Source: Candidatus Latescibacterota bacterium (GTDB taxonomy: Bacteria; Latescibacterota; UBA2968; UBA8231). From it: a stretch of 64,000 nt of DNA. A program made the position numbers and the translations under genes. The DNA is taken from the NCBI GenBank assembly GCA_965215195.1, contig CBDCDC010000002.1:4192001-4256000 (forward strand). The letters are read 5' to 3'. This document shows, piece after piece, positions 7,666 to 30,364 of the stretch. Under the pieces are notes generated by a model. It ran no database searches. It saw nothing but the letters and a program-made list of their open reading frames with translations, and was not told the DNA's origin. The first letter of the stretch is position 1; each line of letters starts with the position of its first letter.

Positions 7666-7696
7666 GGAAAAGTCAATTAAGGAACAGGTTAATACT

Positions 7697-8378: not shown

Positions 8379-8481
8379 TCAACGTGGTCAGTGGTCAGTC
8401 CCTGCCTCGCTCTAGGGGGTGGAACTAAGCACTGACTGCTGGCCATTCCACTAGCTAACCACCAACCGCGAGGAGGGTGCC

Positions 8482-13796: not shown

Positions 13797-15635
13797 ATGC
13801 CGAAAGTTAGAATGTTCACAGTGGCCGCTTGGTTGGGCATCTGCGTCGCCGGCCATGCCGCTGCGGAGGAAGGGGCGTGGGAGGTGGTGGAGAAAATTCT
13901 CATGAGTACCAAGGATATCGTCGTACTCGACGGCACCGAAAAGGTGCCGCTGCGCTACGAGGGGGGAGCAGAGCCGACCCACGGCGACTGGATGGTGCGC
14001 CACATGCTGTCCGATCCCGAAAAACTCAATCCGTACACCTCCAGCGATGCCGGTGCCAGCCGGGTGCTAGAGCTTATCTTTGAGAGCCTACTCGACACCG
14101 AGCATGAGCCGCCGTACAACCTGCGGGGTTGGGTGGCTGTCGGATATCCAGAGGTTGCGGCGGACAAACTCGCGTACACGTTTGAGTTGCGCGACGGGGT
14201 TTACTTCTCAGACGGCAAGCCGCTGACGGCCGCGGATGTCGTCTTCAGCATGAAGGTCATCCACAACCCCCAAGTGCTAGCGCCGCATCTGCGCAACTAC
14301 TATGCTACCGTCCGAGACGTGCAGATCGTGGAGGCCAATAAGGTCCGCTTCCTTTGCCGCGAGCCTTATTTCCGCAATGACCTGATCTTGGGCGGCTTCT
14401 CCATTCTGCCCAAGCATTTCTACGACCCGGAGGGGCTGATGGAGCCGGTCGAGCTCAAGAGCTTGGTGGATGGCTCTTGGGAGGAGGGGCCTCACAAGGA
14501 ACGGGTTGAGCGCTTTGCCGAACAGTTCAACCAAAATTTCAATCGCACGGCGCTTGGCTCGGGGCCGTACCGGATCGCAGATCCAGAGCGCGATTTGGTC
14601 ACCCAGCAGAAAGTCGTGCTGACGCGGAATGCAAACTACTGGGGTCGGGACGTGGAAGGGCTGCTGCCGCCCGGCTTTGTCGATAAGATCGTCTTTAACA
14701 TCATCAACAATACCGACGCGGCATTCATCGAGTTGACCAACGGCAACCTCGATTACTACGCTCTGCGCCCGTTGCAATTTAAGGAAAAGAGCTGGTCGGA
14801 AGACTTCAATCGCCGCTTCCTCAAAGGCGTCAGCTACTCCAGCGGCTATATGTACATAGGGTGGAACAACAACCATCCGATCTTCGGCGACAAGCGGGTG
14901 CGCCAAGCCATGACCTATTTGACCGACCGCGAGGGCATGGTAGAGAACTTCATGTTCGGCTTGGCCGAGACGGTAGAGGGGCCGATTAACAAGTTTCGCC
15001 CGGAGTACAACCACGACCTCGCGCCGTACCCCTACGATCCCGACCGCGCCCTCGACCTGCTCGCGGAGGCTGGCTGGGAGGACGCCGATGAGGACGGCAT
15101 TCTCGACAAGACCATCGACGGAGAGTTGGTGCCATTTCGCTTTGAGATCTTGGTCAACTCGGGCAACCAGATCCGCAAAGACATCGCCCTGACGGTCCAA
15201 TACGAGCTGCAAGATATCGGCATTGACTGCCAAGTGCGCGAGCTAGACTGGTCGATTTTCCTGCAAAAGGTCAAGAGCAAAGCTTTCGACGCCATGGTGT
15301 TGGGCTGGACCGGCAGCCTGCGCGTCGCACCCGACAGCTACCAGATCTGGCATTCTTCCCAGACCGTAGAGAACGGCTCCAACCACGTGAGCTTTATCAA
15401 CGACGAAGTTGACAACATCTTGGAGACCTATCGCCGCGAGTTCGACATGGACAAGCGCATTGAGCTCTACCGCCGCTTTCAGGAGATCCTGTACGCGGAA
15501 CAGCCGTACACCTTCATGTGGAAATCGCGCTCGCCCCAAGCCTATAGCCGGCGCTTCAGTGGCGTCACTTGGTATCCCCCCGGCGTCCGCTTGCAGGACT
15601 GGTGGGTTGCGCGGGAAGAGCAGATGTACCAATAG
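13797..15635 (+). CDS. oppA: Peptide ABC transporter substrate-binding protein (OppA/DppA family)
   Basis: FSDGKPLTAADVVFS, GSGPY, DKRVRQAM, YDPDRALDLLAEAGW; signal peptide; AAGGAG RBS. Confidence 0.9.
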   Translation: MPKVRMFTVAAWLGICVAGHAAAEEGAWEVVEKILMSTKDIVVLDGTEKVPLRYEGGAEPTHGDWMVRHMLSDPEKLNPYTSSDAGASRVLELIFESLLDTEHEPPYNLRGWVAVGYPEVAADKLAYTFELRDGVYFSDGKPLTAADVVFSMKVIHNPQVLAPHLRNYYATVRDVQIVEANKVRFLCREPYFRNDLILGGFSILPKHFYDPEGLMEPVELKSLVDGSWEEGPHKERVERFAEQFNQNFNRTALGSGPYRIADPERDLVTQQKVVLTRNANYWGRDVEGLLPPGFVDKIVFNIINNTDAAFIELTNGNLDYYALRPLQFKEKSWSEDFNRRFLKGVSYSSGYMYIGWNNNHPIFGDKRVRQAMTYLTDREGMVENFMFGLAETVEGPINKFRPEYNHDLAPYPYDPDRALDLLAEAGWEDADEDGILDKTIDGELVPFRFEILVNSGNQIRKDIALTVQYELQDIGIDCQVRELDWSIFLQKVKSKAFDAMVLGWTGSLRVAPDSYQIWHSSQTVENGSNHVSFINDEVDNILETYRREFDMDKRIELYRRFQEILYAEQPYTFMWKSRSPQAYSRRFSGVTWYPPGVRLQDWWVAREEQMYQ

Positions 15636-15644: not shown

Positions 15645-16061
15645 GTGTCCTCCGCAGACGCCCTCCGCTGGGAGAGCCACCCCCTGCGCCGGGAGAAGCC
15701 GGCCAAGTCCATGCTACTGGTCGCGCTCATCGTCGCTTCCGCAGCGGCTGCGGCCTTTGGCTTTGAGCATTGGTTTTACGGGGTGTTTTCACTCGGAGCA
15801 TTGACCGTCTCGCTGTCGCGCTATTTCTTCCCTACGCGCTACGCGCTCAACGGCGAGGGGGTCCGCAGCGAACACCTCGGCCTTAAACAGCGCCGTTCTT
15901 GGGCGGAATTCCGTCGAGTAGAAGAGCATCGGGACGGCATTTTTTTACGTCCGTCCGTCCGCCCAAGTCGGCTGGATTCCTTTCGCGGCGTTTTTTTGCG
16001 CTGCGATCAAAACCGCACAGAGGTTGCGCGTTTCGTCCGGTGCCATGTTCCGAGTCAATAG
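15645..16061 (+). CDS. Hypothetical membrane protein (2 TM plus beta-rich soluble domain)
   Basis: 138 aa; two hydrophobic segments then YFFPTRY; tightly packed in the operon. Confidence 0.7.
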   Translation: MSSADALRWESHPLRREKPAKSMLLVALIVASAAAAAFGFEHWFYGVFSLGALTVSLSRYFFPTRYALNGEGVRSEHLGLKQRRSWAEFRRVEEHRDGIFLRPSVRPSRLDSFRGVFLRCDQNRTEVARFVRCHVPSQ

Positions 16062-16380
16062 CTTAAAAGCGCGGTGGCGGCACGCTTTTGCCCTTGAAGA
16101 TCCAGCGGCGGGTTGGTCTGAAGACGAGCGTGCGCTGGCCGAGCGGCTGGCCGAGTTTATAGTGCGCCGCCGCATGGGAGCGGCCGCGTCCATGGCGTTG
16201 GAGGCTTGCCGCCCTCTCAACTTTTTGGGCAGCCAAGCCCTGACCTTTTTGGCCCCGTTTGCCACGCTGGTTTTTTCGCGCGACGAGTACCAGCGCTTTA
16301 CGCGCATGTTGGAGCGACGCCAGTGCATAGATTTGCTCGCCGAGGCCATTGCCCGGCGCGAAAGCCAAAAGCATGGATGA
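16045..16380 (+). CDS. Hypothetical helical protein
   Basis: LAERLAEFIVRRRMGAAASMALEACRPLNFLGSQ; overlaps both neighbours. Confidence 0.7.
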   Translation: MFRVNSLKARWRHAFALEDPAAGWSEDERALAERLAEFIVRRRMGAAASMALEACRPLNFLGSQALTFLAPFATLVFSRDEYQRFTRMLERRQCIDLLAEAIARRESQKHG

Positions 16381-18154
16381 CCTCAACGTAGTTATCGCCA
16401 CGGACTGCGGCAGTACGACGACCAAGGCGATCCTGATCGAAAAGAAGGACGAAGGGTATCGCCAGACCTTTCGCGGCGAGGCCCCCACTACGGTGGAGGC
16501 CCCCTTTGAGGACGTCACCCGGGGGGTGCTCAACGCCATTCAAGAGGTTGAGGAGCTTTCCGGGCGGCAAATTCTCGCTGGCGAGCAGATCATCACTCCG
16601 GCAGACGGCGCTGTCGGGGTCGATATGTACATCTCCACGAGCAGTGCCGGCGGCGGGTTGCAGATGGTAGTGGCCGGCGTGGTCTTGGCGATGACTGGCG
16701 AGAGCGCACAGCGCTGCGCCTTGGGGGCCGGGGCAATTGTCATGGACGCGCTCGCTGCCAACGATGGGCGCTTGCCGCACGAGAAAATAGAGCGCATCCG
16801 CCAACTGCGCCCCGATATGGTGTTGCTGTCGGGCGGCACCGATGGCGGCACCGTCAGCCACGTGGTCGAGCTGGCCGAATTCATCAGCGCGGCCGATCCC
16901 AAGCCCCGCTTTGGCGCGGGCTTCAAGTTGCCGGTTATTTTTGCGGGCAATCAGAGCGCGTGCGAGGCGGTCAAAAAGGCGTTGGGAGGGAAGATGGCCC
17001 TGACCGTCGCCGAGAATATCCGCCCAGTGCTCGAAGAGGAAAACTTGGACCCGGCGCGGCGCGTCATTCACGACCTCTTCCTCGAACACGTCATGGCGCA
17101 GGCACCTGGCTACCGCAAGCTGATGGGCTGGACCGGTGCGCCGATTATGCCGACGCCCGGGGCAGTGGGCGAGATCATGCAGACTATTGCCCGCCAGCAG
17201 GAGCTCAATGTCGTTGGCGTGGATATCGGCGGGGCGACGACCGATGTATTCAGCGTCTTCGATGGCGCGTTCAACCGCACGGTCAGTGCCAATTTAGGCA
17301 TGTCCTATAGCGTCTCCAACGTGCTGGCCGAGGCCGGGCTCGACCGCATCATGCGCTGGGTTCCTTTTGACATTGAGGAAGCCGACCTCCGCGACCGGAT
17401 CAAAAACAAGATGATCCGCCCGACGACCATCCCGCAGCTCATGCAGGAACTGCAAGTTGAGCAAGCCATTGCCCGCGAGGCCCTGCGCCTGGCCTTTGAG
17501 CAACACCGGGCGTTGGCAGTGGGATTGAAGGGGGTGCAGAGCAAGCGCACGCTGGCCGATGTGTTTGAGCAGGGTGCCACCGGCGAGAGTTTAGTCGAGA
17601 TGATGGCGCTGGACATGCTGGTCGGCAGCGGCGGCGTACTCTCGCACGCGCCCCGCCGCGAGCAGAGTTGCGCCATGCTCATAGATGCCTTCCAGCCCGA
17701 AGGCGTCACTCGCTTGGCGGTCGATAGCATCTTTATGATGCCCCACTTGGGGGTGCTCTCGACCGTTGACGAGCGGGCCGCGACCGAGGTTTTTGAGCGC
17801 GATTGCCTGATCTACTTGGGCACTTGTGTAGCTCCCGTCGGCGAGGGTAAGGACGGCGAGGTTTGCCTCCAGTACGAGATAGAACTGCCCAGCGGGCGTC
17901 AAACTGGCCAAGTACAGGTCGGCCAGCTACAGTGGATGCCCTTGGCCGATGGCGAGGAGGTCGAAGTCTCACTCCAGCCGGCGCGGCGTTGGGATGTGGG
18001 TGCTGGTCCGGGGCAAGCCCTAAACGCGCGGGTGCGCGGCGGGGTTGTAGGGCTAGTGCTGGACGGTCGCGGGCGGCCCATCCAGATGGCGACAGACCGC
18101 GATCGCCAGCGGCAGATAAGCGACTGGCAGCGGGCGTTAAACCTATACGAGTAG
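16373..18154 (+). CDS. GlmL/MutL (glutamate mutase L)-like ASKHA-fold ATPase
   Basis: DCGSTTTKA (phosphate 1), SSAGGGL, LSGGTDGG, PTPGAV, DIGGATTDVFS (phosphate 2), RTVSANLGMSYS, GSGGVL. Confidence 0.85.
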   Translation: MDDLNVVIATDCGSTTTKAILIEKKDEGYRQTFRGEAPTTVEAPFEDVTRGVLNAIQEVEELSGRQILAGEQIITPADGAVGVDMYISTSSAGGGLQMVVAGVVLAMTGESAQRCALGAGAIVMDALAANDGRLPHEKIERIRQLRPDMVLLSGGTDGGTVSHVVELAEFISAADPKPRFGAGFKLPVIFAGNQSACEAVKKALGGKMALTVAENIRPVLEEENLDPARRVIHDLFLEHVMAQAPGYRKLMGWTGAPIMPTPGAVGEIMQTIARQQELNVVGVDIGGATTDVFSVFDGAFNRTVSANLGMSYSVSNVLAEAGLDRIMRWVPFDIEEADLRDRIKNKMIRPTTIPQLMQELQVEQAIAREALRLAFEQHRALAVGLKGVQSKRTLADVFEQGATGESLVEMMALDMLVGSGGVLSHAPRREQSCAMLIDAFQPEGVTRLAVDSIFMMPHLGVLSTVDERAATEVFERDCLIYLGTCVAPVGEGKDGEVCLQYEIELPSGRQTGQVQVGQLQWMPLADGEEVEVSLQPARRWDVGAGPGQALNARVRGGVVGLVLDGRGRPIQMATDRDRQRQISDWQRALNLYE

Positions 18155-18157
18155 CTC

Positions 18158-19273
18158 ATGGCCCACGCCTATACCCCTGGACTGCGCGTGACGCAACACG
18201 CAGTCGTCCACAAAGAGCGGCGTTTGCCCCTCAAAGGCGAAGTTGTCGTCGAGCGCGGCCAAGCGGTGCGGCGAAACCAAGTCGTGGCCCGCACCGAACT
18301 GCCGGGCGAGGTGGCAATCCTCAACTTGGTAAACCGCTTGGGCATCTCGCCGCAAGAGTTATCCGGCTATATGCTCAAAAAAGAGGGCGACCGCGTCGAA
18401 GCCGGCGAGCCGCTCGCCGAGACCAAGCCCTTTATTCGGTGGTTCAAGACCACGGTCGAAGCCCCGGTCAGCGGCACGGTCGAGAGCATTTCGCCGGTTA
18501 CCGGGCAGGTGATGCTGCGCCAAGCCCCTAAGCCGGTCGAAGTGCTCGCTTACGTCGATGGGGTCGTCGAGGAAGTTTTTGCCGCGGAGGGCGTGCGCGT
18601 CGCAGCGCAAGGTGCGTATATCCAGGGCATTTTCGGCGTGGGGGGCGAGTGCTGGGGTGCGCTGCACTTGGCGGTTGCAGCCCCGGACGCCATTGCCGGG
18701 CCGCTGGGCCCGGAAGTGGCGGGCAAAATCGCGGTGGTCGGTAGCCTGATTAGCGCGGAGACCGTGGAACAGGCCCGGCAGGCCGGGGCCGTGGGGTTGA
18801 TCGGCGGCGGCCTGCGCGACCGCGACTTGCGCGACCTGCTCGGCCGCGATTTGGGCGTGGCCATCACCGGGACCGAGCAAATCGGCCTGACCGTGGTAGC
18901 TACCGAGGGCTTCGGCCGCGTCGCCATGGCCCGCAAGACCTTCGACATTCTGCGCGCCTGCGCCGGCATGGATGCGTCCATGGCCGGCGCGACCCAGATC
19001 CGCGCTGGCGTATTGCGGCCGGAGATCATCGTTCCCACAGCCGCTGACAAAGAGGAAGAAGAGGTGCGGCCGAGTGCGGGCGGGTTGCAGGTGGGCGATT
19101 TGTTGCGGGTGATTCGGATGCCCTATTTTGGGCGCATTGGGCGCGTCAGCGACTTGCCGACCGAATTGTGCGCGGTGGAATCTGGGGCGCGGGTGCGGGT
19201 CTTGGCCGTGGAGTTTGAAGACGGGGAGCAGGCGGTAGTGCCGCGGGCAAATGTGGAGCTGATTGAGGAATAA
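18158..19273 (+). CDS. Hypothetical protein with barrel-sandwich-hybrid-like motifs and C-terminal KOW-like domain
   Basis: GEVVVERGQAV, KKEGDRVEAGEPLA...VEAPVSGTV; LQVGDLLRVIRMPYFGRIGRV. Confidence 0.75.
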   Translation: MAHAYTPGLRVTQHAVVHKERRLPLKGEVVVERGQAVRRNQVVARTELPGEVAILNLVNRLGISPQELSGYMLKKEGDRVEAGEPLAETKPFIRWFKTTVEAPVSGTVESISPVTGQVMLRQAPKPVEVLAYVDGVVEEVFAAEGVRVAAQGAYIQGIFGVGGECWGALHLAVAAPDAIAGPLGPEVAGKIAVVGSLISAETVEQARQAGAVGLIGGGLRDRDLRDLLGRDLGVAITGTEQIGLTVVATEGFGRVAMARKTFDILRACAGMDASMAGATQIRAGVLRPEIIVPTAADKEEEEVRPSAGGLQVGDLLRVIRMPYFGRIGRVSDLPTELCAVESGARVRVLAVEFEDGEQAVVPRANVELIEE

Positions 19274-19277
19274 AGGT

Positions 19278-20522
19278 ATGAGAGCAAAAAGCTGGCTGGC
19301 TGCATTCGTCTTGGCTTGGCCGTTGGCGAGCGCGGCGGAGAATGCGGAACAGGGGCTTGGCGCGTTGCTGGCACCCCCTAGGCCGCCGATTGAGGTGCAA
19401 GCCTTTGACACGCCCAATGACGACGGGGGCAGCATTACGCTGACTTGGCCGCGAGATCGTCAGATCAGTGAAAATGCGATGTATCAGGTCGCCATTGCCG
19501 ACTCGCCCAGCGGGCCTTTTCGCGTCGCGGCCGAGGTTGCGGCAACGGAGAATTTGATGTCCGAGGCACCGGCCCTCTTTGGGCACGGGGATGATCTGGA
19601 GAATCACCACTATGTCAACGTTGAGGAATTCGCCGGCGCGAGCGGCAAGGTGCCGTTAGAAGACGGCAAGACGTATTACTTTCACGTGGATGTGCGGTCG
19701 GCCGGGGGCGCGATCCGCGGCAAGGTGATCGTCAACGCCGAGTCGGCCGGCAATTTTTTTAATCGCGCCAAGACCAACAATCTGATGTTGTGCCTCGTGT
19801 TTTCAGGGCTAATCATGGGCTACATTGGCATCGCACGGCGGCGCGCGCTCAAAATTCGCCGCATCGCCGGACTAGAGGCGCTCGACGAGGCGCTGGGGCG
19901 GGCGACCGAGATGGGCAAGCCGGTGCTCTTCATCCACGGCCTGCGCGGCATGGACTCGATATCGACTATTGCCGCGGTCAATATCTTGGGCCGGGTCGCG
20001 CGGCGCACGGCCGAGTACGAGACCGCGCTGCGGGTGGTGGCCCCAGACCCGGTGGTCATGTCCGTGAGTCAGGAGACGATGAAGGCATCTTATGTGGAGG
20101 CCGGCCGGCCCCACGACTTCAACCCGGAGCACGTGTTCGTCGCTAGTACCGATCAGTTCAGCTATGCGGCGGCGGTTGAAGGCATCATGGTGCGCGAGCG
20201 GCCGGCGGCTCACATTATGATGGGGTACTTCTACGCTGAGTCCCTGCTGTTGGCCGAGACGGGTTCGACGACCGGGGCGATCCAGATCGCCGGTACGGAC
20301 GCCTTCACCCAACTGCCTTTTTTTATTACGACTTGCGATTATACCCTACTCGGCGAAGAGCTGTACGCGGCCAGTGCCTATCTGTCGGGTGAGCCGCGAA
20401 TGCTGGGCACGCTCAAGGGCCAGGACATGAGCAAGGCCATTATTTTGATCGTTTTGGTGGTGGGCACGATCTTAGCGACATTGGGGATGCCGCAATTCGC
20501 ACACGTGTTCGCCCCGTACTGA
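19278..20522 (+). CDS. Membrane protein: signal peptide, FnIII-like domain, DUF6754-like domain
   Basis: AFDTPNDDGGSITLTW; IRRIAGLEALDEALGRATEMGKPVLF; QLPFFITTCDYTLLGEELYAASAYLS; C-terminal TM. Confidence 0.75.
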   Translation: MRAKSWLAAFVLAWPLASAAENAEQGLGALLAPPRPPIEVQAFDTPNDDGGSITLTWPRDRQISENAMYQVAIADSPSGPFRVAAEVAATENLMSEAPALFGHGDDLENHHYVNVEEFAGASGKVPLEDGKTYYFHVDVRSAGGAIRGKVIVNAESAGNFFNRAKTNNLMLCLVFSGLIMGYIGIARRRALKIRRIAGLEALDEALGRATEMGKPVLFIHGLRGMDSISTIAAVNILGRVARRTAEYETALRVVAPDPVVMSVSQETMKASYVEAGRPHDFNPEHVFVASTDQFSYAAAVEGIMVRERPAAHIMMGYFYAESLLLAETGSTTGAIQIAGTDAFTQLPFFITTCDYTLLGEELYAASAYLSGEPRMLGTLKGQDMSKAIILIVLVVGTILATLGMPQFAHVFAPY

Positions 20523-20531
20523 GGAGATGCC

Positions 20532-21188
20532 ATGTTGTTTTTCAGCCGCACCCTACCACTGGCTGTCGCCTTTGTCTTTGGTTTGCTGGGCATTGCCATT
20601 TACTACATACCGCACAGCTATGCCCAGAGCTTTGAGCGGGAGATGTCGCTGTGGGTGCGGATCATTTTTGCTTTTTCCTACCTCCTCGGGCTGTACAGCT
20701 TACTCAACCTGCACTGGCAGCGCATCCGCCAGCAGGTCGCCGGCTGGGGGTATAGCTTCGTGGCGATTGTCAGCTTTGCGGTGATGATGGTCTTCGTGGC
20801 GTACAACGACGGGGCCGGTCCGTTTGCTCCGCAAGCCGGAGCCGGGGCCTACAAGTGGATGTTCGACTACATTCACTTCCCCTGCGCCGCCACCATGTTC
20901 TCGATCTTGGCCTTCTTCATTGCGTCGGCGGCCTACCGGACCTTCCGCGCCCGTACGCCCGAAGCCGCCTTGTTGCTCGTCGCCGCCGTGATCGTCATGT
21001 TGGGCCGGGTGCCCATTGGCCGGGAGATCTCCGAGTATTTTCCGCTGGTGAGCGAGTGGCTGATGAGCGTACCGAATTTAGCAGCCAAGCGCGGCATCCT
21101 GCTTGGGGTATCCCTAGGGGCCATTGCAACCTCGCTGCGGATCATCTTCGGTATTGAGCGTTCGTACTTGGGAGGGGGAGACAAGTGA
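20532..21188 (+). CDS. Hypothetical polytopic membrane protein
   Basis: ~6 hydrophobic helices; ATMFSILAFFIASAAYRTFRART; GIERSYLGG. Confidence 0.78.
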   Translation: MLFFSRTLPLAVAFVFGLLGIAIYYIPHSYAQSFEREMSLWVRIIFAFSYLLGLYSLLNLHWQRIRQQVAGWGYSFVAIVSFAVMMVFVAYNDGAGPFAPQAGAGAYKWMFDYIHFPCAATMFSILAFFIASAAYRTFRARTPEAALLLVAAVIVMLGRVPIGREISEYFPLVSEWLMSVPNLAAKRGILLGVSLGAIATSLRIIFGIERSYLGGGDK

Positions 21189-22003
21189 TGCAGATAGATC
21201 GCCGCATCCTCTTCGCCTTGATGTTTCTCGGAGTGGCCGTGCCGCTCTTGGTGGGGCTAGACCTGCCGATCACGCCGTCCAAGCGGGTGAGAGCGGCTTA
21301 CGACCGGATTGAGCAACTTGCCGCCGGGCAGGTCGTCTTAGTCTCCTTCTCCTACGGCGCCAGTACAGCTCCTGAGATGCAGCCCATGGCGCGGGCGATT
21401 TTGCGCCACGCCTTCCGCCGCGACCTCAAGGTGGTTGCCATTTGCCTGTGGCCGGAAGCGACCGGCTTGGCCCAGGAGGTGCTCGACGAGATGGCGGCTG
21501 AATTCGACTTGGAGTACGGGGTGGATTACACCTTTATGGGCTACAAGCCGGGCAATTTTAGCGTCATTCTCAATATGGGGCACGACATGCACGGCACCTT
21601 TCCACAGGACAATTGGGGCGCCGGTGTTGGCACTTTGGAATTGATGCGGAATTTGCGCTCGCTGAGGGATTTCGATCTCGTCTTTGACTTGGGGGCCGGA
21701 GATTCGATTGAGTTTTGGTGGATTCCCTACGGGCAGGAGAAATACGGCTTTCCCTTTGCCGCCGGCTGCACCGCGGTGATGGCCCCGGATCTCTACCCCT
21801 TCCTCGGCTCGGGCCAACTCGTGGGTCTGCTCGGGGGCTTGGCCGGTGCAGCCGACTACGAGGTCCTGATTGATCACCGCGATGAGGCGAACAAGAGCAT
21901 GTCTCCCCAGTCGGTGACGCACTTGATCATTGTCGTCTTCGTGATTTTTGGCAATATCGCCTACTTCGTCGGTCGGCGGGGCCGATCGCAGCAGGAGAGC
22001 TAA
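21185..22003 (+). CDS. Hypothetical membrane-anchored alpha/beta domain protein
   Basis: N- and C-terminal TM; GCTAVMAPDLYPFLGSGQLVGLLGGLAGAADYE; GTGATG start/stop overlap. Confidence 0.78.
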   Translation: MMQIDRRILFALMFLGVAVPLLVGLDLPITPSKRVRAAYDRIEQLAAGQVVLVSFSYGASTAPEMQPMARAILRHAFRRDLKVVAICLWPEATGLAQEVLDEMAAEFDLEYGVDYTFMGYKPGNFSVILNMGHDMHGTFPQDNWGAGVGTLELMRNLRSLRDFDLVFDLGAGDSIEFWWIPYGQEKYGFPFAAGCTAVMAPDLYPFLGSGQLVGLLGGLAGAADYEVLIDHRDEANKSMSPQSVTHLIIVVFVIFGNIAYFVGRRGRSQQES

Positions 22004-22006
22004 GCC

Positions 22007-22720
22007 GTGCGCGATACCTATATCTTTCTGGGTTTGCTCCTGCTGTTTGCGGCCGTCAACATCGGCTTAGTGGCCAGCGGCACCTTGGCGGCGGATTGGA
22101 CGGGTTTCGGCGTCATCGTCGCCGCGGGAATGACCTTGGCGCTCTACAGCTTCCTCTACAAGGACAACCCGCTCTTCAAATTTGCCGAGCACGTCTTCGT
22201 CGGCGTGGCAGCGGCCTACGTATTCGGCCAGTACTGGTATCCGACGCTTTACGGCGAGCTCATCGCCGAATGGACCGATCCGGGGGAAGGGGAGTCGCCC
22301 GATTGGTGGCTGTTGGCCCCGACGGCGCTCGGGCTTTTGATGTTGACGCGCTTTTCGCTGCGCTTTGGTTGGCTCAGCCGCTATGCTTTTGCATTTTTCG
22401 TGGGGTTGAGTGCCGGCCTGACGATTCCCCGCTATATTTCTTCTTTTATTTTGGCCCAAGTTGAACCTACATTACAACCACTAACTGGGAGCTGGGAGGG
22501 ACTCAATTTGCTGATCGTCCTAGTGGGGGTCGTCGGGGTGTTGGTTTATTTCTTCTTTTCCGTTGAGCACACTGGCGCGGCCGGCCACATCTCCAAGGTG
22601 GGGATATGGTTTTTGATGGTCTCGTTTGGGGCTTCGTTTGGTTACACTATTATGGCGAGGGTCTCGCTGTTGATCGGGCGCGCGACCTTTCTCTTAGAAG
22701 ATTGGCTGCACCTGATGTAG
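22007..22720 (+). CDS. Hypothetical polytopic membrane protein
   Basis: YSFLYKDNPLFKFAEHVFVG, YFFFSVEH, FGASFGYTIMAR; ~7 TM. Confidence 0.78.
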   Translation: MRDTYIFLGLLLLFAAVNIGLVASGTLAADWTGFGVIVAAGMTLALYSFLYKDNPLFKFAEHVFVGVAAAYVFGQYWYPTLYGELIAEWTDPGEGESPDWWLLAPTALGLLMLTRFSLRFGWLSRYAFAFFVGLSAGLTIPRYISSFILAQVEPTLQPLTGSWEGLNLLIVLVGVVGVLVYFFFSVEHTGAAGHISKVGIWFLMVSFGASFGYTIMARVSLLIGRATFLLEDWLHLM

Positions 22721-22754: not shown

Positions 22755-25700
22755 ATGACCAAGTTTGCAGGCGTTTTTCGCGCCCTGATTGCACTTGGCG
22801 TCTTGCTCGCGCTGAGCTTGGCTCCGGCCGAGGCCAGCACCGGCGGCAAGATCGCCGGTGTAGTAAAGGATGCCACCACCGGGGATGGGCTGCCCCATGC
22901 CAATGTCGTGGTGGTGGATGCCAAGCTGGGGACCACGGCGGACGAAAGGGGCCGCTTTTTTATTCTCAACGTGCCGGCGGGCACCTACACCCTCAAGGTC
23001 ACGTATATCGGCTACGCGGATTATACGGTCGAGGATGTGCGGGTTTCCGCCGACCTGACCACGAATCTCGACATCGACCTGACTTCTTCGGATATCCAAG
23101 TCGAGGAGGTGATAATTCGCGCCGAGCGGCCTATTATCGACAAGACCGCCACGAATGCGGTGCGCATTGTCGGGGCCGAGGACATAGAGATTCTGCCGTT
23201 CAGAGGCGTTGGCCAAGTCTTGTCCCTGCAGGCTGGCGTGGTCGAAGACGAGGGTGCGCTGCACATCCGCGGCTCGCGCAGCGACGAAATTGGCTATTAC
23301 GTTGATGGGGCCAGCGTCCGCAACATAATCACCGGCAGCAGTGCTGTGGCCCTGATCGACGAAGCCCTAGAGGAAATTCAGCTACAGGCCGGCGGCTTCA
23401 ACGCCGAGTACGGCGGGGCCAACGCCGGCATCGTCTTGCAGGAACTGCGCACCGGAGGCAGCGATTGGGACTTCAAGGTCGTCGCCGAGTCGGACAATTT
23501 CACTTCCGACTTTGAGGAGCGCTTCGGCTCGTACTCATACGGCTATTCCAACCAAGTGGTCACGGCCGGCGGCCCGGTCGCGGGCAACCAAAATATCCGC
23601 GCCTTTCTCGCCGGTCAGCGGTTGAGCCGGGACTACCGACCGACCTTCTGGTCGGGGTTTGAGTTCGAGGATCTGGTCGATACGGGCAACCGCCAAGGCC
23701 GCGTACATTGGGAAAAGGACGAGGAGGGCAATCCCATCCCAGACGCGGTCGAGCGGCTGGAAGTGAAACCGGGCAATATCCCGCACACCGGCAGCGAGTT
23801 CCTCGGCTTTAACAGCACCCTGCACTTCAACTACAATCCCATCCAGTTCCGGGTCACGGGCCTGCACTCCACCGGGGACCGCGATCTCAACATCAATCCC
23901 ATCAAAAACATCCTCAATCAAGAACGCCTCAACGAGCAGACGTACTCTTCGAGCTTGGTCAACGTAAAGGCCATCCACTTGCTCGACCCGAGCCTGTTCT
24001 ACGAAATGAACGTCAGCTTCTACGGTCAGGGGCGCGAGAGTTTCGACGGGGTGTTCAAAGAGCGTTGGTGGGTTTACAACGACAGCGTGGCCGTCCAGCG
24101 CGCCTTGGAAGGCGGCCTGGAGTACACCCCTTATACGGCCAACGGATCGATACCCGAGCCTTACGACCTGAGCGGGTTTCCGTTCAACCGCCCGGGGTCG
24201 CCTACCAATTCTGCGTCCGGGAACAGCACGGGCGCTTGGTACGCCAAGGAAGAGGATCGCTATTGGGGCTTGGCCGGCAGCATTACCAAGCAGACCGCGG
24301 TCCATCAACTCAAGGCCGGCTTTGACTACCAGATGTGGACGTCGCGCCGCTACGCCATCTTCAACGGATCCATTCGCTCGCGTATCGCAGCGACATATCC
24401 CAAGCTAGACGAAGTGTATCAGCGGTACTACAGCGACGCGCTCAACGAGGGCGAAATTCTCGACGAGCTGATCGAGACTGCCAAGGGCCTGCCCGATGAC
24501 GAAGGTAGCCTCGAGGACCTCAAGAAGTCCCTACGCCTCAGTTCTGGCGACTTCTATGGCTACGACGAATTCGGCCGCTCCATCGACTCGTCGGACGACC
24601 CGCTGCAAGACCCGCGCAAGCCCGTGGTCGGCTCGGCCTACGTCCAAGACAAGATCGAATACAACGATCTGATCATCAACGCCGGGCTGCGCTTGGATTA
24701 CTTTGATGCGGCGAGTTGGCGCTTTGTCGATCAATCGGCGCCGAAGATAGACAAAGACGCACGCACCATAGTAATCGCAGACACGACCGGCACGTACATG
24801 GAGAAGACGCCTACATACGCGGAGATCAGCCCGCGCTTGGGCTTTTCGTTCCCGGTGTCGGACCTGACGGTCTTCCACGTGCAGTACGGGCGCTTCTCGC
24901 AGATGCCGCGGATGCGCGATATGTTCACCGGCGGTGCGCGGCTGGCCATCGAGTTGGGTGGGCAAAACTTCATTCCCACGCCCACGGCCTTTGACGTCGA
25001 GCCGGTGCGCACGACCCAATACGAGATCGGCTTTGAGCGTCAGTTCGCCGATTTTGCCTCGTTTGACGTGACGAGTTTTTACCGCGACATCAAGGGCCAG
25101 CTCCAGATCAGGCGTCAAGATGTGTCGGCCGGGAACGCCGGTTCGTTTACGTACTTGCAGAACGGCGATTTCGCCACGACCAAGGGCATTGAGTTCCAGT
25201 TCAAGGTGCGGCGGTTCAACCGCTTGCAGGCCGAGTTGAACTACACGCTGTCCGACGCACGCGGCACGGGTTCGACCCTGATATCGGCGCAGTCGGGCGT
25301 GGAGAACGACACCACCGTGCCGACGATCATCTCCCCGCTCGACTTCAACCAGACGCACCGCGGCTCTTTGTTCTTGGACTACCGCTTTGCCGACAACGAG
25401 GCGAACCCGCTTCTCCGCAGCTTGGGGGCCAACCTGTTAGCGCGCTTTGCCAGCGGCTACAGCTTCACGCTGGTGGAGGGTTCCATCGGCCAGCGCGGGC
25501 CGGAAGAAGGCGGCATCCTCGCCAGCGACGACCCGCGCTCGCGCAAGCCGGTTGAGTCCATCAATCGCTCTTCGACGCCCTGGACTTTTCAGACGGACTT
25601 GCGGATTGACAAGGGCTTTTCGCTCATGGGGGTCAATGCCCAGATTTACACGTACGTGCAGAACCTGTTCAACCGCCAGAACGTAATTAACGTGTACGGC

Positions 25701-25904
25701 CGGACCGGCAACGACAAGGACGACGGCTTTTTGACGAACCCGGACTTGAGCCAGCAGATCGTCGAGGCCAGCGGCGGTTGGGAGTACCAGCAGCTCTACG
25801 AGGCGATCAACTTGCTCAACCGCCAGCACTACTGGTCCACCGAGGGCGGCGACATCTACGACTCACCGCGGCAGATCCGCTTCGGGCTACAATTCGACTT
25901 CTAG
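22755..25904 (+). CDS. TonB-dependent receptor with N-terminal carboxypeptidase-regulatory-like domain
   Basis: GKIAGVVKDATTGDGLPHANV, HIRGSRSDEIGYYVDG, GGFNAEYG, SPRLGFSFP, C-terminal PRQIRFGLQFDF. Confidence 0.92.
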   Translation: MTKFAGVFRALIALGVLLALSLAPAEASTGGKIAGVVKDATTGDGLPHANVVVVDAKLGTTADERGRFFILNVPAGTYTLKVTYIGYADYTVEDVRVSADLTTNLDIDLTSSDIQVEEVIIRAERPIIDKTATNAVRIVGAEDIEILPFRGVGQVLSLQAGVVEDEGALHIRGSRSDEIGYYVDGASVRNIITGSSAVALIDEALEEIQLQAGGFNAEYGGANAGIVLQELRTGGSDWDFKVVAESDNFTSDFEERFGSYSYGYSNQVVTAGGPVAGNQNIRAFLAGQRLSRDYRPTFWSGFEFEDLVDTGNRQGRVHWEKDEEGNPIPDAVERLEVKPGNIPHTGSEFLGFNSTLHFNYNPIQFRVTGLHSTGDRDLNINPIKNILNQERLNEQTYSSSLVNVKAIHLLDPSLFYEMNVSFYGQGRESFDGVFKERWWVYNDSVAVQRALEGGLEYTPYTANGSIPEPYDLSGFPFNRPGSPTNSASGNSTGAWYAKEEDRYWGLAGSITKQTAVHQLKAGFDYQMWTSRRYAIFNGSIRSRIAATYPKLDEVYQRYYSDALNEGEILDELIETAKGLPDDEGSLEDLKKSLRLSSGDFYGYDEFGRSIDSSDDPLQDPRKPVVGSAYVQDKIEYNDLIINAGLRLDYFDAASWRFVDQSAPKIDKDARTIVIADTTGTYMEKTPTYAEISPRLGFSFPVSDLTVFHVQYGRFSQMPRMRDMFTGGARLAIELGGQNFIPTPTAFDVEPVRTTQYEIGFERQFADFASFDVTSFYRDIKGQLQIRRQDVSAGNAGSFTYLQNGDFATTKGIEFQFKVRRFNRLQAELNYTLSDARGTGSTLISAQSGVENDTTVPTIISPLDFNQTHRGSLFLDYRFADNEANPLLRSLGANLLARFASGYSFTLVEGSIGQRGPEEGGILASDDPRSRKPVESINRSSTPWTFQTDLRIDKGFSLMGVNAQIYTYVQNLFNRQNVINVYGRTGNDKDDGFLTNPDLSQQIVEASGGWEYQQLYEAINLLNRQHYWSTEGGDIYDSPRQIRFGLQFDF

Positions 25905-25929
25905 CCGCTTAAAAGCGAGGAAGCACACC

Positions 25930-28900
25930 ATGCGAAAACTCATTTTTGGATATATAGCTGCGGCTGGGCTGGCAATCGGCCCGGCCGAGGCGCGCGAGCC
26001 GTTCTACGGCCGTGCAGCCAAATCCCTCCAAGAGGAGGCCGTTGAGATCTCGACCGATCGGACGATGCTCAACATCAACAACATGGCGATGTGGATTCTG
26101 AGCGATGGCGAGTCGGCTCACAACCCGATCAGCGGTAGCGCGGGCGTGACTTTTCCGCGCTCGACCGACCAAGTCATCTTTCAGGACGGACTGATTTGGG
26201 GCGGGCGGGTCATTGACGGCAACCCGCAGGAGTTGCGAGTCGGCGGCCAGACTTATGCCGTTGGCACGGTCCCGGGTGTCATTGAGTCGAGGGGGGTGGC
26301 CCAAGACCGCGATACAGCGCGCCTGTACCGAATTCGTCGCGACTATGCGACCGCTGATTTGCGGCTCGACGCCTCCGAGATCCTCAACAAGCGCCTGAGC
26401 GAAGTCACCGACGCCGATGAGGAGGCCGTGCGCACCCAATACGAGCGCGACTGGATGGAGTGGCCAGCCGAGTTGGGCGCGCCCTTTTACGATAACGACG
26501 GAAACGGGCAGTACGACCCCGCAGTTGACGAGCCGGGGCTGGCCAATGCCGACCAAGTGATCTGGTTAGCCATCAACGACTTGGACCCAGGGGCTGTCGC
26601 CAGTCTCTATGGCTCCTTACCGATTGGCATGGAGACGCAGGTGACGCTGTGGGGTTACGCCCGCACGGACGCGCTGGGCGACGCGATTTTCAAGAAGTAC
26701 AAGGTCATTTACAAGGGCACCGAGAGCACGCCGGACACGGCGCGCATTGAGGACATGTACTTGGCCCAATGGTCCGATCCCGACTTGGGCGACTTTGGCG
26801 ACGACTTTGCCGGCGCCGATGTCGATCTGAGCTTGGGCTACGTCTACAACTCGATTGACGACGACTCGCACTACGTGAATTTTGAATTGGCCCCGCCGGC
26901 CGCGGGCTACGATTTTTTGCAAGGCCCAGTCGTGCCGGTGTACCTACTCGACGAGGAGGGTAATGTCGCCGTAGATGAGGAAGGCAACTCCCTGCTCGAC
27001 GAGAGCTCGGTGGCGATCTTCAACGACGGCATGAGGCCCGGTTACAAGAACTTGCCGATGACCGCTTTCGTGTACTTCGCGGCTGGTTCGTCGATTAGTG
27101 ACCCGGACTTGAACGAGTACGACGGCACCTTGCAGTGGTACAACCTGCTGCAAGGCTTCCAGCCGCAGGCCGACATTGAAAATCCCGTGCCCTACACCAA
27201 TCCCCTGACCAACGAGGATACCAAGTTCACGCTCGACGGCGACCCAACGCGGGCCACTGGCTGGAACGACGGAATCCCATTGCCGGCCGGCGATCGGCGC
27301 ATCGTAATGGCGACCGGCCCGTTTGAGATGGCATTGGGTGACACGCAAGAAGTGGTGGTCGCACTCTTGGGCGCGAGCAGCACCGACCGCTTGCGCAGCG
27401 TCTCCAAGCTCAAGTTTACCGACCAGTTCGTGCAGGACGCGTACAACAGCTTCTTTCAGGTTCCCAAGCCGCCGGTCCGGCCCAATGTTCGCCTAATTGA
27501 GCTGGATCAGACCATCGTACTCAACTGGGGTTGGGACCCAGAGTCGGTGTCTAAGACCGAAGGCGTGGGTTCGCCCGGTTTTGATTTTGAAGGCTATAAC
27601 GTCTATCAATTGCCTTCAGCCGAGGCCACGCTGAGCCAAGGCACTAGGGTCGCCACTTTTGATTTAGTCAACGGCGTGACGACCATATTGGGGATCGCTC
27701 TCGACGAGCAGTCCGGCGTGGTGCTGGACGTGCCTTTGCAGATCGGCAATGACAGCGGCCTCCAGCGCTATATCGCCCTGAGCCACGACGCGTTGCGCGG
27801 CGGCCCGCTGGTCAACGGCCAGCAGTACTATTTCACAGTGACCGCCTACAACCGCGCCACTTCGGAAGATGCGGCCACGACCACCACCCTAGAAAGCAGC
27901 CCGCAGACCATCACTTGTGTGCCGCAAATCGCGCCGCCGGGTATCACGCGCACCCATGAGGACCCCGGGGATACGCTGTCTGTCGAACACACCAAGGGCA
28001 TCGGCGACGCCAGCGTATGGCCGCTGGTGATCGATCCTACGGCCCTGCAGCAGGCCACCTACAAGGTCACCTTCAACGACGACGCGACTTGGAGTCTGTC
28101 GCGGGACGGGGAGAGGATAGTCGACCGGGAGAGCAACATTTCCCTCGACGAGAGCTATCCCATCGTCGAAGGCCTCCAAGTGAAGGTGGGCGATCTGGTC
28201 TTCACCCATCCGACGACCTACATCCGTTCCAAAGTGACCAACGACGCCAACTTAGACGATGGCCCCCTCAGCCTTTGGGGCGACGGTACGCTCTTCGGCT
28301 TTGCCGACGGCTATGGCTCAACTTTCTGGGACGGCGGCGGCGCTGGGGACAATCGGCTGGTGCGCGATATTGAGTTCCGCTTCACCGGCGTGTGGAACGC
28401 CGATTCGACCGCAATTGCCGAGGGCGGCTCAATTGCGACCCTCGGTGGCGTCAGTGCCGGCAGCGGCGAGCGCGACATCGCGGCGCATCCCTTCAAGCCC
28501 GCCGAGGTGTCGGATTCGACCGGTGCCTTCCTCCAGCGCGTGCCCTTTGAGGTTTGGGACGTGGAGGATCCGGACAATCCGCGCCAGTTGAACGCCGTGT
28601 TTTACGACCGCGGTGCCGACGGGTCCAGAGACGAAGGCAGCGTTGTCTATCACCAGACTTACAACATGCCGGGTCGCGACTATATCACCATCGTCCACAC
28701 CGACTACGATCCGACCAAGATCCACGAGTTGACGGACGAGAACACCACGTGGGTTTACTTCTTCACGCAGGGAGGTTCTTCGGTCTGGTCGACGGGCGAC
28801 GTACTAAGGATTACCATCGGCAATACCGTAGTGGCCGGTGAGGACGAGTTTGAGTTCAAGGTGACGGCCGAGACGTACTCCGAAGCCTTGGCCAAGGAAA

Positions 28901-29220: not shown

Positions 29221-29242
29221 GGGAGAAACAGGAGGCCATTCC

Positions 29243-30277: not shown

Positions 30278-30364
30278 AATTAGTGGTTAGTGGTCCGTTT
30301 CCCACTGCCACTCCGCGGGGATGGGTTGGGGCTGGCCACTGGCGGTCTCCAAAGGAGATTTTTT

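Follow-up and report, generated by a model that had tools for sequence, protein, structure and literature searches.

A widespread gene module that pairs a MutL/GlmL-family ATPase with a DUF6754 membrane cassette in Candidatus Latescibacterota

In this study, a stretch of 64,000 nt from a Candidatus Latescibacterota bacterium (GTDB lineage Bacteria; Latescibacterota; UBA2968; UBA8231) was analyzed, comprising positions 4,192,001–4,256,000 of the forward strand of contig CBDCDC010000002.1 (assembly GCA_965215195.1); this whole stretch is referred to as the window. At window positions 15645–22720 lies a block of eight genes, g1–g8 (Table 1). All eight co-directional open reading frames (ORFs) of the initial annotation were present, and its description of their products as two small proteins, an ATPase, a barrel-sandwich/KOW protein, an FnIII-DUF6754 protein and three more membrane proteins also holds; the MutL/GlmL family is represented by the ATPase g3, while barrel-sandwich, swivel and KOW domains are found in its partner g4. 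Using the longest-ORF starts, the junctions from g1 to g8 measure −38, −32, +3, −11, +9, −4 and +3 bp. Thus, the gaps are at most 9 bp as annotated, but two overlaps are longer than this unless translation begins at internal ATG codons. The GC3 of the block (0.68–0.79) is similar to that of the adjoining genes, and locally the block starts earlier, as the SBP_bac_5 gene ends just 9 bp before g1. Weak evidence comes from a relative with ~91% identity, in which an 8,884-nt contig from an RNA library runs from the binding-protein gene through g1–g8. Besides the hydrophobic segments listed in Table 1 for g1, g6 and g8, Kyte-Doolittle analysis yielded two each for g5 and g7 and none for g2. No Pfam family was found for g1, g2, g6, g7 and g8. 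Homologues of all eight genes recur in this order elsewhere among the genomes searched, and this arrangement is far above chance expectation.

Table 1. Genes of the block and its two adjoining context genes (window positions).
Feature	Position	Strand	Evidence
Family-5 solute-binding protein (peptide/nickel type), context gene	13797..15635	+	PF00496, E 6.2e-75
g1, small protein, 138 aa, lineage-restricted accessory	15645..16061	+	≥1 hydrophobic segment; no Pfam/NCBIfam match
g2, small conserved protein, 118 aa, accompanies ATPase	16024..16380	+	no family match
g3, ASKHA (actin/Hsp70-fold) ATPase, 601 aa, module subtype	16349..18154	+	PF13941 MutL, 423.9 bits, E 9.4e-127
g4, soluble three-domain partner, 371 aa	18158..19273	+	RnfC_N E 1e-6; Biotin_lipoyl E 3e-6
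g5, FnIII-DUF6754 membrane protein, 419 aa	19263..20522	+	DUF6754 PF20539, E 5.2e-111
g6, polytopic membrane protein, 218 aa	20532..21188	+	6 hydrophobic segments
g7, bitopic membrane protein, 272 aa	21185..22003	+	N- and C-terminal TM helices
g8, polytopic membrane protein, 237 aa	22007..22720	+	≥3 hydrophobic segments
TonB-dependent-receptor-like outer-membrane protein, context gene	22755..25904	+	CarbopepD_reg_2 + Plug domains; 34 bp downstream of g8

At least 593 confirmed stretches of the module were detected in species genomes, and the g2–g8 unit is conserved across many phyla. Since g1 occurs only in some lineages, the conserved core consists of seven genes rather than the eight proposed at first. 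The core is collinear in 43 of 80 loci; g6–g8 follow g5 in all 66 loci with at least 3 kb of downstream sequence, and g3 and g4 precede g5 in 48 of the 62 loci whose upstream sequence extends for at least 4 kb. Co-occurrence of the ATPase with DUF6754 was confirmed in a phylum sample of 151 genomes, with 123 containing both, three DUF6754 only, two the ATPase only and 23 neither. For the unlinked cases, a module-type ATPase was located elsewhere in three of five genomes; two possibly incomplete WOR-3 genomes contain the cassette, and the ATPase was not detected in them. These data are best explained if the block is a single copy of a two-part system that is widespread and so far undescribed. 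In agreement with the initial annotation, which knew of no functional description, literature searches on DUF6754 and the module gave no relevant paper among the results listed.

Custom hidden Markov models placed g2 directly before g3 in 59 of 92 loci and detected g1 in 25, always immediately upstream of g2. Where the cluster is split, g1 stays with g2 and g3; in one locus (L095), g1 and g2 sit directly before g5. The groups [g1 g2 g3] and [g4–g8] are 7.5 kb apart in one genome (G007) and 110 kb apart in another (G052), and because split loci separate them in this way, g4 is assigned to the membrane unit. A natural g3-g4 fusion was found in 38 clusters, among 42 longer relatives of g4, which supports the proposed pairing of the ATPase with its soluble partner.

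The ATPase g3 is present as a single copy in its genome, and module ATPases from different phyla are 60–95% identical to it. It belongs to the same Pfam family as GlmL/MutL and the Or-4 relative of ornithine degradation (PF13941; NF040745, NF040744, TIGR01319) and shares their invariant nucleotide-binding motifs; the intact phosphate motifs noted earlier were invariant in an alignment including two true GlmL proteins. However, g3 has ~130 aa more, carries internal insertions as well as a C-terminal extension of ~110 aa that true GlmL lacks in the alignment, and is linked to g2, g4 and the membrane cassette instead of a mutase. Its designation as an orphan was corroborated, as it scores 229.7 bits against an NCBIfam GlmL cut-off of 475 and falls below every NCBIfam GlmL-type cut-off. 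Identity to the true GlmL paralogues of related genomes is ~30% (34% over the motif alignment). No mutase or B12-binding domain occurs in the scanned ORFs of the window, as had been stated, glutamate mutase E (GlmE; PF06368) was not found in the whole 6.13-Mb assembly (95% complete), and among the 92 module-bearing loci examined a mutase never adjoins the module ATPase. In related genomes, a separate true GlmL paralogue adjoins a B12-binding gene or GlmE, while the module ATPase in the same genomes lies next to DUF6754. Because it is true GlmL, and not the module ATPase, that adjoins the B12-mutase genes, g3 is not a mutase helper, and the system is not an accessory of a B12-dependent mutase.

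An AlphaFold2 model of g4 (pLDDT 87.8) comprises an RnfC/NqrA-like barrel-sandwich (residues ~1–150), a swivelling beta/beta/alpha domain (152–294) and a KOW/SH3-like domain (309–371). With VIA-align, the middle domain matched the phosphohistidine swivel domain of PTS Enzyme I (2wqd; Z 10.0, rmsd 2.5 over 105 residues) and that of rifampin phosphotransferase (5hv1; Z 9.2), but the PF00391 match of PEP-utilising enzymes is absent in g4. No histidine is conserved at ≥90% in the swivel domain, and the position that we take to be that of the phospho-histidine motif is Met in 41 of 44 sequences (manual motif alignment). A candidate carrier lysine, K90, is present in 32 of 44 sequences and thus not conserved. 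The barrel-sandwich matched the N-terminus of NqrA/RnfC (Z 7.8–7.9; PF13375 29.1 bits, above cut-off; 27% identity over 64 residues) and the third domain the KOW domain of NusG/Spt5 (Z 7–8). In the Rnf and Na+-NQR membrane complexes, RnfC and NqrA are peripheral subunits and, as cytoplasmic caps, can be likened to g4. Yet the remainder of these proteins is missing from g4 (rnfC model 14.9 bits, cut-off 245.95), and the Rnf/Nqr membrane subunit families are not matched by the module's membrane proteins.

The membrane protein g5 (AlphaFold2 model, pLDDT 86.5) consists of a signal peptide, a periplasmic FnIII domain, a TM helix, a conserved cytoplasmic Rossmann-like DUF6754 domain and a second TM helix. 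The annotated FnIII domain in g5 (Z ~10) and KOW domain in g4 were thereby confirmed on models, while the Rossmann-like part gave generic fold matches alone (Z ~10). This part has a mean top-residue frequency of 0.76 vs. 0.39 for FnIII, with many invariant polar residues. Among the 150 listed of 2259 representatives, nearly all DUF6754 proteins carry the domain near the C-terminus and lengths are mostly 322–1276 aa, with one 169-aa fragment lacking the domain. Five of 35 long forms have BamB-like propellers and 30 contain nothing in Pfam. For g6, which lies next to g5 and is present in 77 of 80 loci, as well as for g7 (74 of 80 loci), no relative was found in Pfam or the PDB. By the positive-inside rule, the ~210-aa domain between the two TM helices of g7 is probably periplasmic. 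The protein g8 has near-invariant acidic residues (D53, E61, E187) and belongs to no named family; 25 of 48 relatives weakly match DUF3704 (best E 0.012), and no PDB relative was found. Its search returned 5330 clusters at E ≤ 0.001, the 120 listed being 'hypothetical protein' or nameless. In 11 of 80 loci, the entire g5–g8 cassette occurs in two to three tandem diverged copies, alongside a single ATPase pair or with no such pair close by. Between such paralogues the cytoplasmic domain is 55–67% identical, vs. 25–49% for FnIII, which can also be wholly lost.

No non-module neighbour is conserved across phyla, and Opp, binding-protein and TonB-receptor neighbours are limited to few lineages. 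A binding-protein homologue adjoins the module in seven of 80 loci; six of these are titled Latescibacterota, and the seventh (L037) is titled Gemmatimonadota. By tblastn, they share 56–95% identity with the binding protein and module genes of the window. In two loci (L042, L044) a binding-protein gene lies between g3 and g4, in L044 together with OppB/OppC permeases; an anammox locus has OppD/F-like genes downstream of g8, and a TonB-type receptor homologue follows the module in L033–L037, L088 and L119. The neighbours in the window genome, i.e., a peptide-type binding protein, an Opp-type permease, a TonB-dependent receptor and a secreted surface protein, suggest uptake of peptide- or protein-derived nutrients in this organism.

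We tentatively favor the view that the module encodes an ATP-driven machine of the inner membrane, for transport or mechanotransmission, whose specificity cassettes can be exchanged. Its first part would be a cytoplasmic engine made of the ATPase g3, its companion g2 (joined in some lineages by g1) and the adaptor g4, whose middle domain has the swivel fold known from mobile domains of phosphotransfer enzymes. The second part would be the inner-membrane cassette g5–g8, four proteins with ~16 predicted membrane helices, in which the cytoplasmic Rossmann-like domain of g5 is highly conserved and the presumably periplasm-facing domains of g5 and g7 differ between lineages and paralogous cassettes. 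ATP binding and hydrolysis by g3 may move g4, which would dock on the cytoplasmic face of the cassette, and the resulting conformational change could drive the movement of a substrate across the inner membrane or its handling there; a single engine might serve several cassettes of differing specificity. The genes match no studied system, and if the proposal is true, this would be a hitherto undescribed kind of ATP-driven membrane machine. The initial annotation had likewise proposed an ATPase co-opted for an inner-membrane complex, with which orphan status, DUF6754 co-occurrence and gene order agree, although its eight-gene unit becomes seven plus one. As a working analogy, ECF-type transporters combine a shared energising module with several substrate-specific membrane components, and the module likewise has one engine for several diverged cassettes per genome; however, the ABC ATPase, EcfT and S-component families are absent from the eight genes, and each cassette has four proteins.

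This reading is supported by the conserved unit, the g3-g4 fusions, the diverged tandem cassettes, the invariant ATP motifs and the swivel fold of g4, and also by the Opp interleaving, the OppD/F-like genes and the downstream TonB-type receptors. On the other side, an ATPase that keeps 60–70% identity between phyla would be expected in a core machine more than in a nutrient importer, and FnIII domains and beta-propellers are protein-interaction folds equally apt for mechanotransmission to a periplasmic partner. By sequence, no membrane protein of the module resembles a known transporter (g6–g8 searches, Pfam/PDB), uptake-type neighbours occur in few lineages, and the WOR-3 genomes have the cassette with no ATPase detected.

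It is somewhat unlikely that nothing crosses the inner membrane and that ATP-driven motion is instead transmitted via the cassette to periplasmic domains, which would activate, assemble or extract a hydrolase, lipoprotein, lipid or outer-membrane component; FtsEX and MacB-type systems would be the analogues. The protein-interaction folds of the outward domains (FnIII; BamB-like propellers in some long forms) and the very high conservation of the engine fit such a function, as do envelope genes (AsmA/YhdP, PlsY, LpxK and SIS-CBS isomerase) near some Nitrospirota and anammox loci. These neighbours are lineage-specific, though, and could be ordinary housekeeping genes, and tandem diverged cassettes and Opp interleaving fit substrate specificity at least as well.

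Rather unlikely is a membrane-anchored enzyme with its own ATP-dependent chaperone, in which the Rossmann-like domain of g5 would be catalytic or cofactor-binding and g3-g4, like B12-enzyme reactivases, would use ATP to open g5 so that a cofactor or intermediate could be loaded, exchanged or reset, in a pathway tied to amino-acid or lipoyl-enzyme metabolism. The family of g3 includes presumed mutase reactivases, and an ASKHA domain with a swivel domain is the make-up of the diol/glycerol dehydratase reactivase DdrA-DdrB, which sets an example of a partner being pried open at the expense of ATP. However, the Pfam scan gave no match to that family, in the module the swivel belongs to a partner protein, separate or fused, that also has barrel-sandwich and KOW domains, and a membrane complex rather than a B12 enzyme is presumed to be the client. 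The invariant polar residues of g5 are numerous, and in three lineages the genes immediately before the module are lipoyl-linked: PDH E1-E2-LipA runs 4 bp into g2 in three of the five Nitrospirota loci carrying it (L071, L054, L103), an LplA-like ligase gene precedes g1 in Latescibacterota loci, and GcvPB does so in L088 and L106; branched-chain aminotransferase and sarcosine-oxidase-like genes are close by in other loci. Against this, LipA does not track the module, being present in 12 of 13 genomes of a family without it (f10) and in none of three of a family with it (f13), and in the window genome LipA and LplA-like genes are 0.4–1 Mb distant. The generic fold matches of the Rossmann-like domain, the variable K90 and the swivel domain without conserved histidine also argue against such an enzyme, which would leave two polytopic subunits and the periplasmic domains unexplained.

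A transmembrane signalling or gating device is improbable. Here, the ectodomains would sense periplasmic ligands or partners and the ATPase pair would act as output or reset, e.g., by gating an ion path through g6/g8. The variable ectodomain above a conserved cytoplasmic domain is receptor-like, g8 offers its acidic residues, and the Rossmann-like domain generically resembles RCK/KTN regulatory domains (KtrC, Z 10.2); yet Pfam and NCBIfam scans gave no known signalling output domain in the eight proteins, no conserved regulator adjoins the module, and a sensor would hardly need four membrane subunits and an ATPase of its own. Finally, that g3 is an ordinary GlmL, reactivating a B12 mutase encoded elsewhere next to unrelated membrane genes, is highly improbable and, despite the strong PF13941 match and the name 'glutamate mutase L' given to relatives in public records, already contradicted by the missed cut-offs, the lack of a GlmE match in the genome, the coexistence of true GlmL paralogues and module ATPases with their own neighbours, and a gene order with the membrane genes that is kept across many phyla.

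All eight open reading frames (ORFs) of the block described in the initial annotation were recovered on the plus strand. They encode two small proteins (g1, g2), an ATPase of the MutL/GlmL family (g3), a soluble protein with barrel-sandwich, swivel and KOW domains (g4), a membrane protein with FnIII and DUF6754 domains (g5) and three further membrane proteins (g6, g7, g8). With the starts of the longest ORFs, the junctions from g1 to g8 are −38, −32, +3, −11, +9, −4 and +3 bp, and the GC3 of 0.68–0.79 is comparable to that of the adjacent genes. Kyte-Doolittle analysis gave six hydrophobic segments for g6, two each for g5 and g7, at least three for g8 and at least one for g1. In Pfam, g5 matched DUF6754 (PF20539; 370.3 bits vs a gathering score of 27, E 5.2e-111) and g3 matched PF13941 over model positions 1–450 of 450 (423.9 bits vs a cut-off of 27, E 9.4e-127); for g4, Pfam indicated a barrel-sandwich of the RnfC_N and biotin/lipoyl type; the Pfam and NCBIfam scans assigned no family to g1, g2, g6, g7 or g8. 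The host assembly (6.13 Mb, 95% complete) holds a single MutL-family gene and a single DUF6754 gene, and loci with 84–88% identity to g5 are likewise labelled Candidatus Latescibacterota. Neither in the window nor in seven diverse loci were Rfam families, riboswitches included, found near the module, and a promoter/terminator scan gave no higher signal than shuffled sequence. One metatranscriptome library contained an 8,884-nt contig of a ~91% identical relative, reaching from the start of the gene for a family-5 solute-binding protein (SBP) into g8, and two further studies contained pieces; contigs of this kind do not establish that the genes are transcribed, or that one transcript spans them. 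RNA runs covered small shares of the stretch only. The coordinates of the features are compiled in the table, where homologous loci bear L-numbers and sampled genomes G-numbers.

Features of the window and of related loci discussed in the text
Feature	Sequence	Positions	Strand	Remarks
SBP gene (peptide type)	window	13797-15635	+	9 bp upstream of the block; all co-directional
Genes g1 to g8	window	15645-22720	+	
Outer-membrane genes after the module	window	22755-31369	+	CarboxypepD_reg+Plug TonB-type receptor, 1096-aa protein with T9SS tail, PorV-like barrel, TPR protein
OppB-like (Opp-type) permease gene	window	31392-32687	+	last of the run after the module
Three tRNA genes, then large bacterial SRP RNA	window	37872-38455		SRP RNA: RF01854, 169 bits
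PTS Enzyme I gene	window	46761-48796		PEP-utilisers N, mobile and C domains; a 90-aa ORF overlaps its start
Second, diverged g5-g8 cassette	L117 (G045:C16), Latescibacterota	1297-4641		separate contig
Canonical GlmL gene	L120 (G136)	7435-9293		region with the GlmL gene directly after a gene for a B12-binding domain
Canonical GlmL gene	G051, C4	287978-290774		region with the GlmL gene beside a GlmE gene
PDH and LipA genes running into g2	L071, Nitrospirota	1377-6767		4-bp overlaps
RACo-type gene	L095, Sumerlaeota	21-1910	-	two genes away, opposite strand

In a phylum sample of 151 genomes, with MutL-family matches counted as strong at E < 1e-90, DUF6754 was found in 126 genomes and a strong MutL-family match in 125. 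Both occurred together in 123 genomes, DUF6754 alone in 3 (all fragmentary assemblies), the ATPase alone in 2 and neither in 23, 12 of which show weak hits (~1e-6) in unrelated proteins of ~940 aa. DUF6754 was present in none of 14 control genomes. A search with a g5 profile and one genome per species yielded at least 593 confirmed stretches, the best 80 of which come from records labelled Latescibacterota, Gemmatimonadota, Brocadiaceae, Scalindua, Anammoxibacter, Phycisphaerae, Planctomycetaceae, Nitrospirota, Nitrospira, Methylomirabilis, Ignavibacteria, Zixiibacteriota, Myxococcales, WOR-3, Stahlbacteria, Edwardsbacteria, Sumerlaeota and Eisenbacteria. A library of 1.84 billion proteins contains 2259 relatives of g5 at E <= 0.001, 751 of them at E <= 1e-30.

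Using tblastn with the window proteins, the best 80 loci gave matches to g5 in 80, g6 in 77, g7 in 74, g8 in 71, g4 in 56, g3 in 54, g2 in 50 and g1 in 19 cases, raw counts which are depressed because many of the 80 contigs end early. When only loci whose contigs extend 3 kb or more past g5 are counted, all 66 contain g6, g7 and g8; of the 62 that have 4 kb or more upstream, 48 contain g3 and g4. In 43 of the 80, g2 to g8 are collinear. Among 92 loci searched with our own HMMs, g2 was detected in 59 and g1 in 25, so that the core is made up of seven genes, with g1 as an accessory in some lineages. Thus, of the eight-gene module proposed initially, the unit itself is conserved across phyla, with g2 to g8 as its core and g1 lineage-restricted. 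All-against-all clustering of flanking ORFs (longest picked greedily, at least 70 aa, some antisense shadows included) revealed no other gene family common to the flanks across phyla. The genes form a widespread and highly conserved seven-gene system of two parts, an ATPase pair (g3 and g4) with g2 and a membrane cassette (g5 to g8).

Fusions and breaks outline these parts. In 38 of 42 longer g4 relatives, g3 and g4 form a single polypeptide of 989–1022 aa, in the order g3, linker, g4 in the two sequences inspected; records name some of the carriers as Neomarinimicrobiota and Planctomycetota. Natural fusions of g4 with g5 were not found: apparent long frames are not fusions, and the only read-through, P0001 (707 aa), is a singleton and truncated. 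Split clusters place g1, g2 and g3 7.5 kb (G007) or 110 kb (G052) apart from g4 to g8, and two loci (L042, L044) have transporter genes inserted between g3 and g4. Broken clusters part between g3 and g4, and g4 therefore goes with the membrane unit and g1 and g2 go with the ATPase. Of five genomes with a cassette and no ATPase within 10 kb, three encode a module-type ATPase elsewhere; none was found in two cassette-carrying WOR-3 genomes of unknown completeness.

Two or three whole cassettes, each ordered g5-g6-g7-g8, stand in tandem at 11 of 80 loci (L068, L075, L082, L087, L088, L089, L096, L098, L102, L105, L111), accompanied by a single ATPase pair or by none in the vicinity. Compared at three of these loci, L068, L075 and L098, the copies are 55–67% identical in the g5 cytoplasmic domain, 36–49% in the middle domain of g7 and 25–49% in the FnIII domain, if this is not lost; the tandem copies are old. 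The diverged second cassette in L117 (36–49% identity) has no adjoining ATPase pair, and its DUF6754 match lies in an open frame of 995 aa. Five Nitrospirota loci (L054, L056, L060, L064, L071) carry a second, longer g8-like gene (~415–440 aa) directly after g8.

Searching the PDB with g3, g4, g5, g6, g7 and g8, both by sequence and by profile, returned nothing significant. For g4, an AlphaFold2 model (44 sequences, pLDDT 87.8) shows three domains, which were compared against 48,161 chains using VIA-align. Residues 152–294 adopt a swivelling beta/beta/alpha fold matching PTS Enzyme I (2wqd; Z 10.0, rmsd 2.5, 105 aligned), rifampin phosphotransferase (5hv1; Z 9.2), RraA (8.8), aconitase X (8.3), the C-terminal domain of pyruvate kinase (8.2) and 5t12 (8.2). 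Residues 51–123 match the N-terminal domains of NqrA/RnfC (Z 7.8–7.9, 27% identity), and residues 309–371 match KOW/SH3-like domains (Z ~7–8). Foldseek, run on the g4 and g5 models, gave local domain matches only, for g4 the same as VIA-align.

The swivel fold is shared with the PEP-utilising mobile domain, but g4 has no PF00391 match at E <= 0.01, and no His occupies a position of 152–294 that is invariant or conserved at 90%. It matches the biotinyl/lipoyl carrier family (PF00364, 27.3 bits vs 22.1; BCCP 2d5d, Z 7.2), but its candidate carrier lysine, K90, is not invariant, with Lys in 32 of 44 sequences, Arg in 7, Gln in 2 and Ser in 2. In the model, the hairpin loop is 10 residues long and includes a short helix. 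Because the swivel lacks a conserved His and K90 varies, g4 is neither a phosphohistidine nor a lipoyl/biotinyl carrier of the known kinds. The likeness to RnfC/NqrA is confined to the N-terminal domain (TIGR01945, 14.9 bits vs 245.95). The window encodes another swivel domain of this fold, in the PTS Enzyme I gene.

The module and the outer-membrane genes lie in the 16 kb that separate the SBP gene of the window from its OppB-like permease gene; no OppC, OppD or OppF genes were seen in the window. In L044, the genes of a complete Opp set alternate with those of the module (g1, g2, g3; SBP, OppB, OppC; g4 to g8; OppD, OppF and a peptidase-like protein with PD40 repeats), and OppD/F-like genes follow g8 in an Anammoxibacter locus.

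For g5, the model (71 sequences, pLDDT 86.5) comprises a signal-peptide-like helix, an FnIII domain (Z ~10), a transmembrane segment, a Rossmann-like domain (200–375) and a final transmembrane segment. The Rossmann-like domain gave generic matches only (sirtuins, PGK, SDR, KtrC and GT-B halves; Z ~10). By the positive-inside rule, it is predicted to be cytoplasmic and the middle domain of g7 periplasmic. The cytoplasmic domain is the best conserved part of g5, with a mean top-residue frequency of 0.76 vs 0.39 in FnIII. The cassette has a conserved cytoplasmic and a variable outer face. In nearly all of 150 relatives listed out of the 2259, mostly 322–1276 aa long, DUF6754 lies near the C-terminus; one 169-aa fragment, which lacks this domain, matches the N-terminal part of g5 only. 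Among 35 long forms, five carry BamB-like beta-propellers and 30 have no Pfam-known domain ahead. Pfam scans of 49 g6, 57 g7 and 48 g8 relatives revealed no consistent family, hhalign showed no relation of g6 to g8 or of g5 to g7, and a protein Atlas returned unnamed clusters of the same families only.

We tentatively favor an inner-membrane machine driven by ATP, whose most likely task is to move or handle a substrate, here probably in a locus for uptake of peptide- or protein-derived nutrients. The ATPase would work via g4 on the cassette, which would set specificity. Less assuredly, the system may represent a new class of primary-active membrane machine, in which an actin/Hsp70-fold ATPase takes the place of an ABC, P-type, V/F-type or AAA+ motor and a fused or paired ATPase and swivel adaptor drives interchangeable four-protein cassettes, with variable periplasmic domains that determine what is taken up or handled. 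It differs from an ABC transporter in that g1 to g8 contain neither an ABC_tran ATPase nor a known permease family; the Opp genes near some modules are separate. The very conserved ATPase pair and ectodomains of the protein-interaction type speak against simple nutrient transport, whereas the Opp-type genes near some modules would fit uptake. Mechanotransmission to a periplasmic client, which would accord with such a pair and such ectodomains, is a somewhat unlikely alternative. A membrane-anchored enzyme with a reactivase-like chaperone would suit the MutL/GlmL affiliation of g3, and the Rossmann-like domain of g5 points to no particular enzyme; we regard this as improbable. A signalling or gating device, which would also make use of the two faces of the cassette, is very unlikely.

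That g3 is an ordinary GlmL, a helper of glutamate mutase, has next to no probability: it misses the NCBIfam cut-offs (NF040745 GlmL, 229.7 vs 475; NF040744 Or-4, 212.2 vs 600; TIGR01319, 157.7 vs 204.05), PF06368 (glutamate mutase E) was not found in the 95%-complete genome, and in genomes of the same class a true GlmL paralogue stands separately beside mutase genes. As noted initially for the 64 kb, no GlmS/GlmE-type gene was present among the window ORFs scanned. In an alignment of eight module ATPases and two true GlmL proteins, the columns of the ASKHA nucleotide-binding motifs are invariant, while the module ATPases differ by several insertions and a C-terminal extension of ~110 aa. This paralogue, a second MutL-family gene, has a 470-aa product that reaches 532 bits against Pfam and shares ~30% identity with g3 (34% over the alignment). 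G136 and G051, both with canonical GlmL, also encode a module-type ATPase near DUF6754. Since canonical GlmL adjoins a B12-binding gene or GlmE in such genomes, the phylum has glutamate-mutase-type chemistry apart from the module. Public records name the module ATPase 'glutamate mutase L', which misdirects metabolic reconstructions of its carriers.

No known kind of system combines an ASKHA ATPase with a swivel adaptor and a four-protein cassette. A literature search for DUF6754, a family without a described function, found no paper using the name, and searches on GlmL, on glutamate mutase with the carrier taxa and on ASKHA proteins with membrane complexes, made without full text and in one glmL search swamped by unrelated uses, gave nothing relevant, in agreement with the initial annotation, which knew of no functional description. 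If our favored reading of an ATP-driven machine is true, hundreds of species, including nitrite oxidisers, anammox bacteria, Gemmatimonadota, Latescibacterota and many uncultured phyla, carry a membrane system absent from textbooks and from the control model bacteria. The defined set of seven proteins, together with natural fusions and multi-cassette variants, can guide experiments.

A link to lipoate was also considered. Genes of lipoyl-dependent metabolism adjoin the module upstream: those for PDH E1-alpha, E1-beta, E2 and LipA do so in five loci of a Nitrospirota sublineage (L071, L054, L078, L090, L103), with LipA overlapping or abutting g2 in L071, L054 and L103; in other phyla, an LplA-like ligase gene precedes g1 in L042, L046 and L124, and GcvPB does so in L088 and L106. 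The adjacency is real in three lineages, but is backed neither by a conserved g4 lysine nor by the phyletic pattern, LipA being present in 141 of 151 genomes, in 12 of 13 of a family without the module and in none of three of a family with it. Since LipA does not track the module and, like the LplA-like gene, lies far from it in the window genome, the link is treated as a lead only. In a single case, Sumerlaeota locus L095, where g3 and g4 are missing and g1 and g2 immediately precede g5, g7 and g8, the gene for a RACo-type protein, an ASKHA reductive activator of corrinoid proteins, lies two genes away on the opposite strand.
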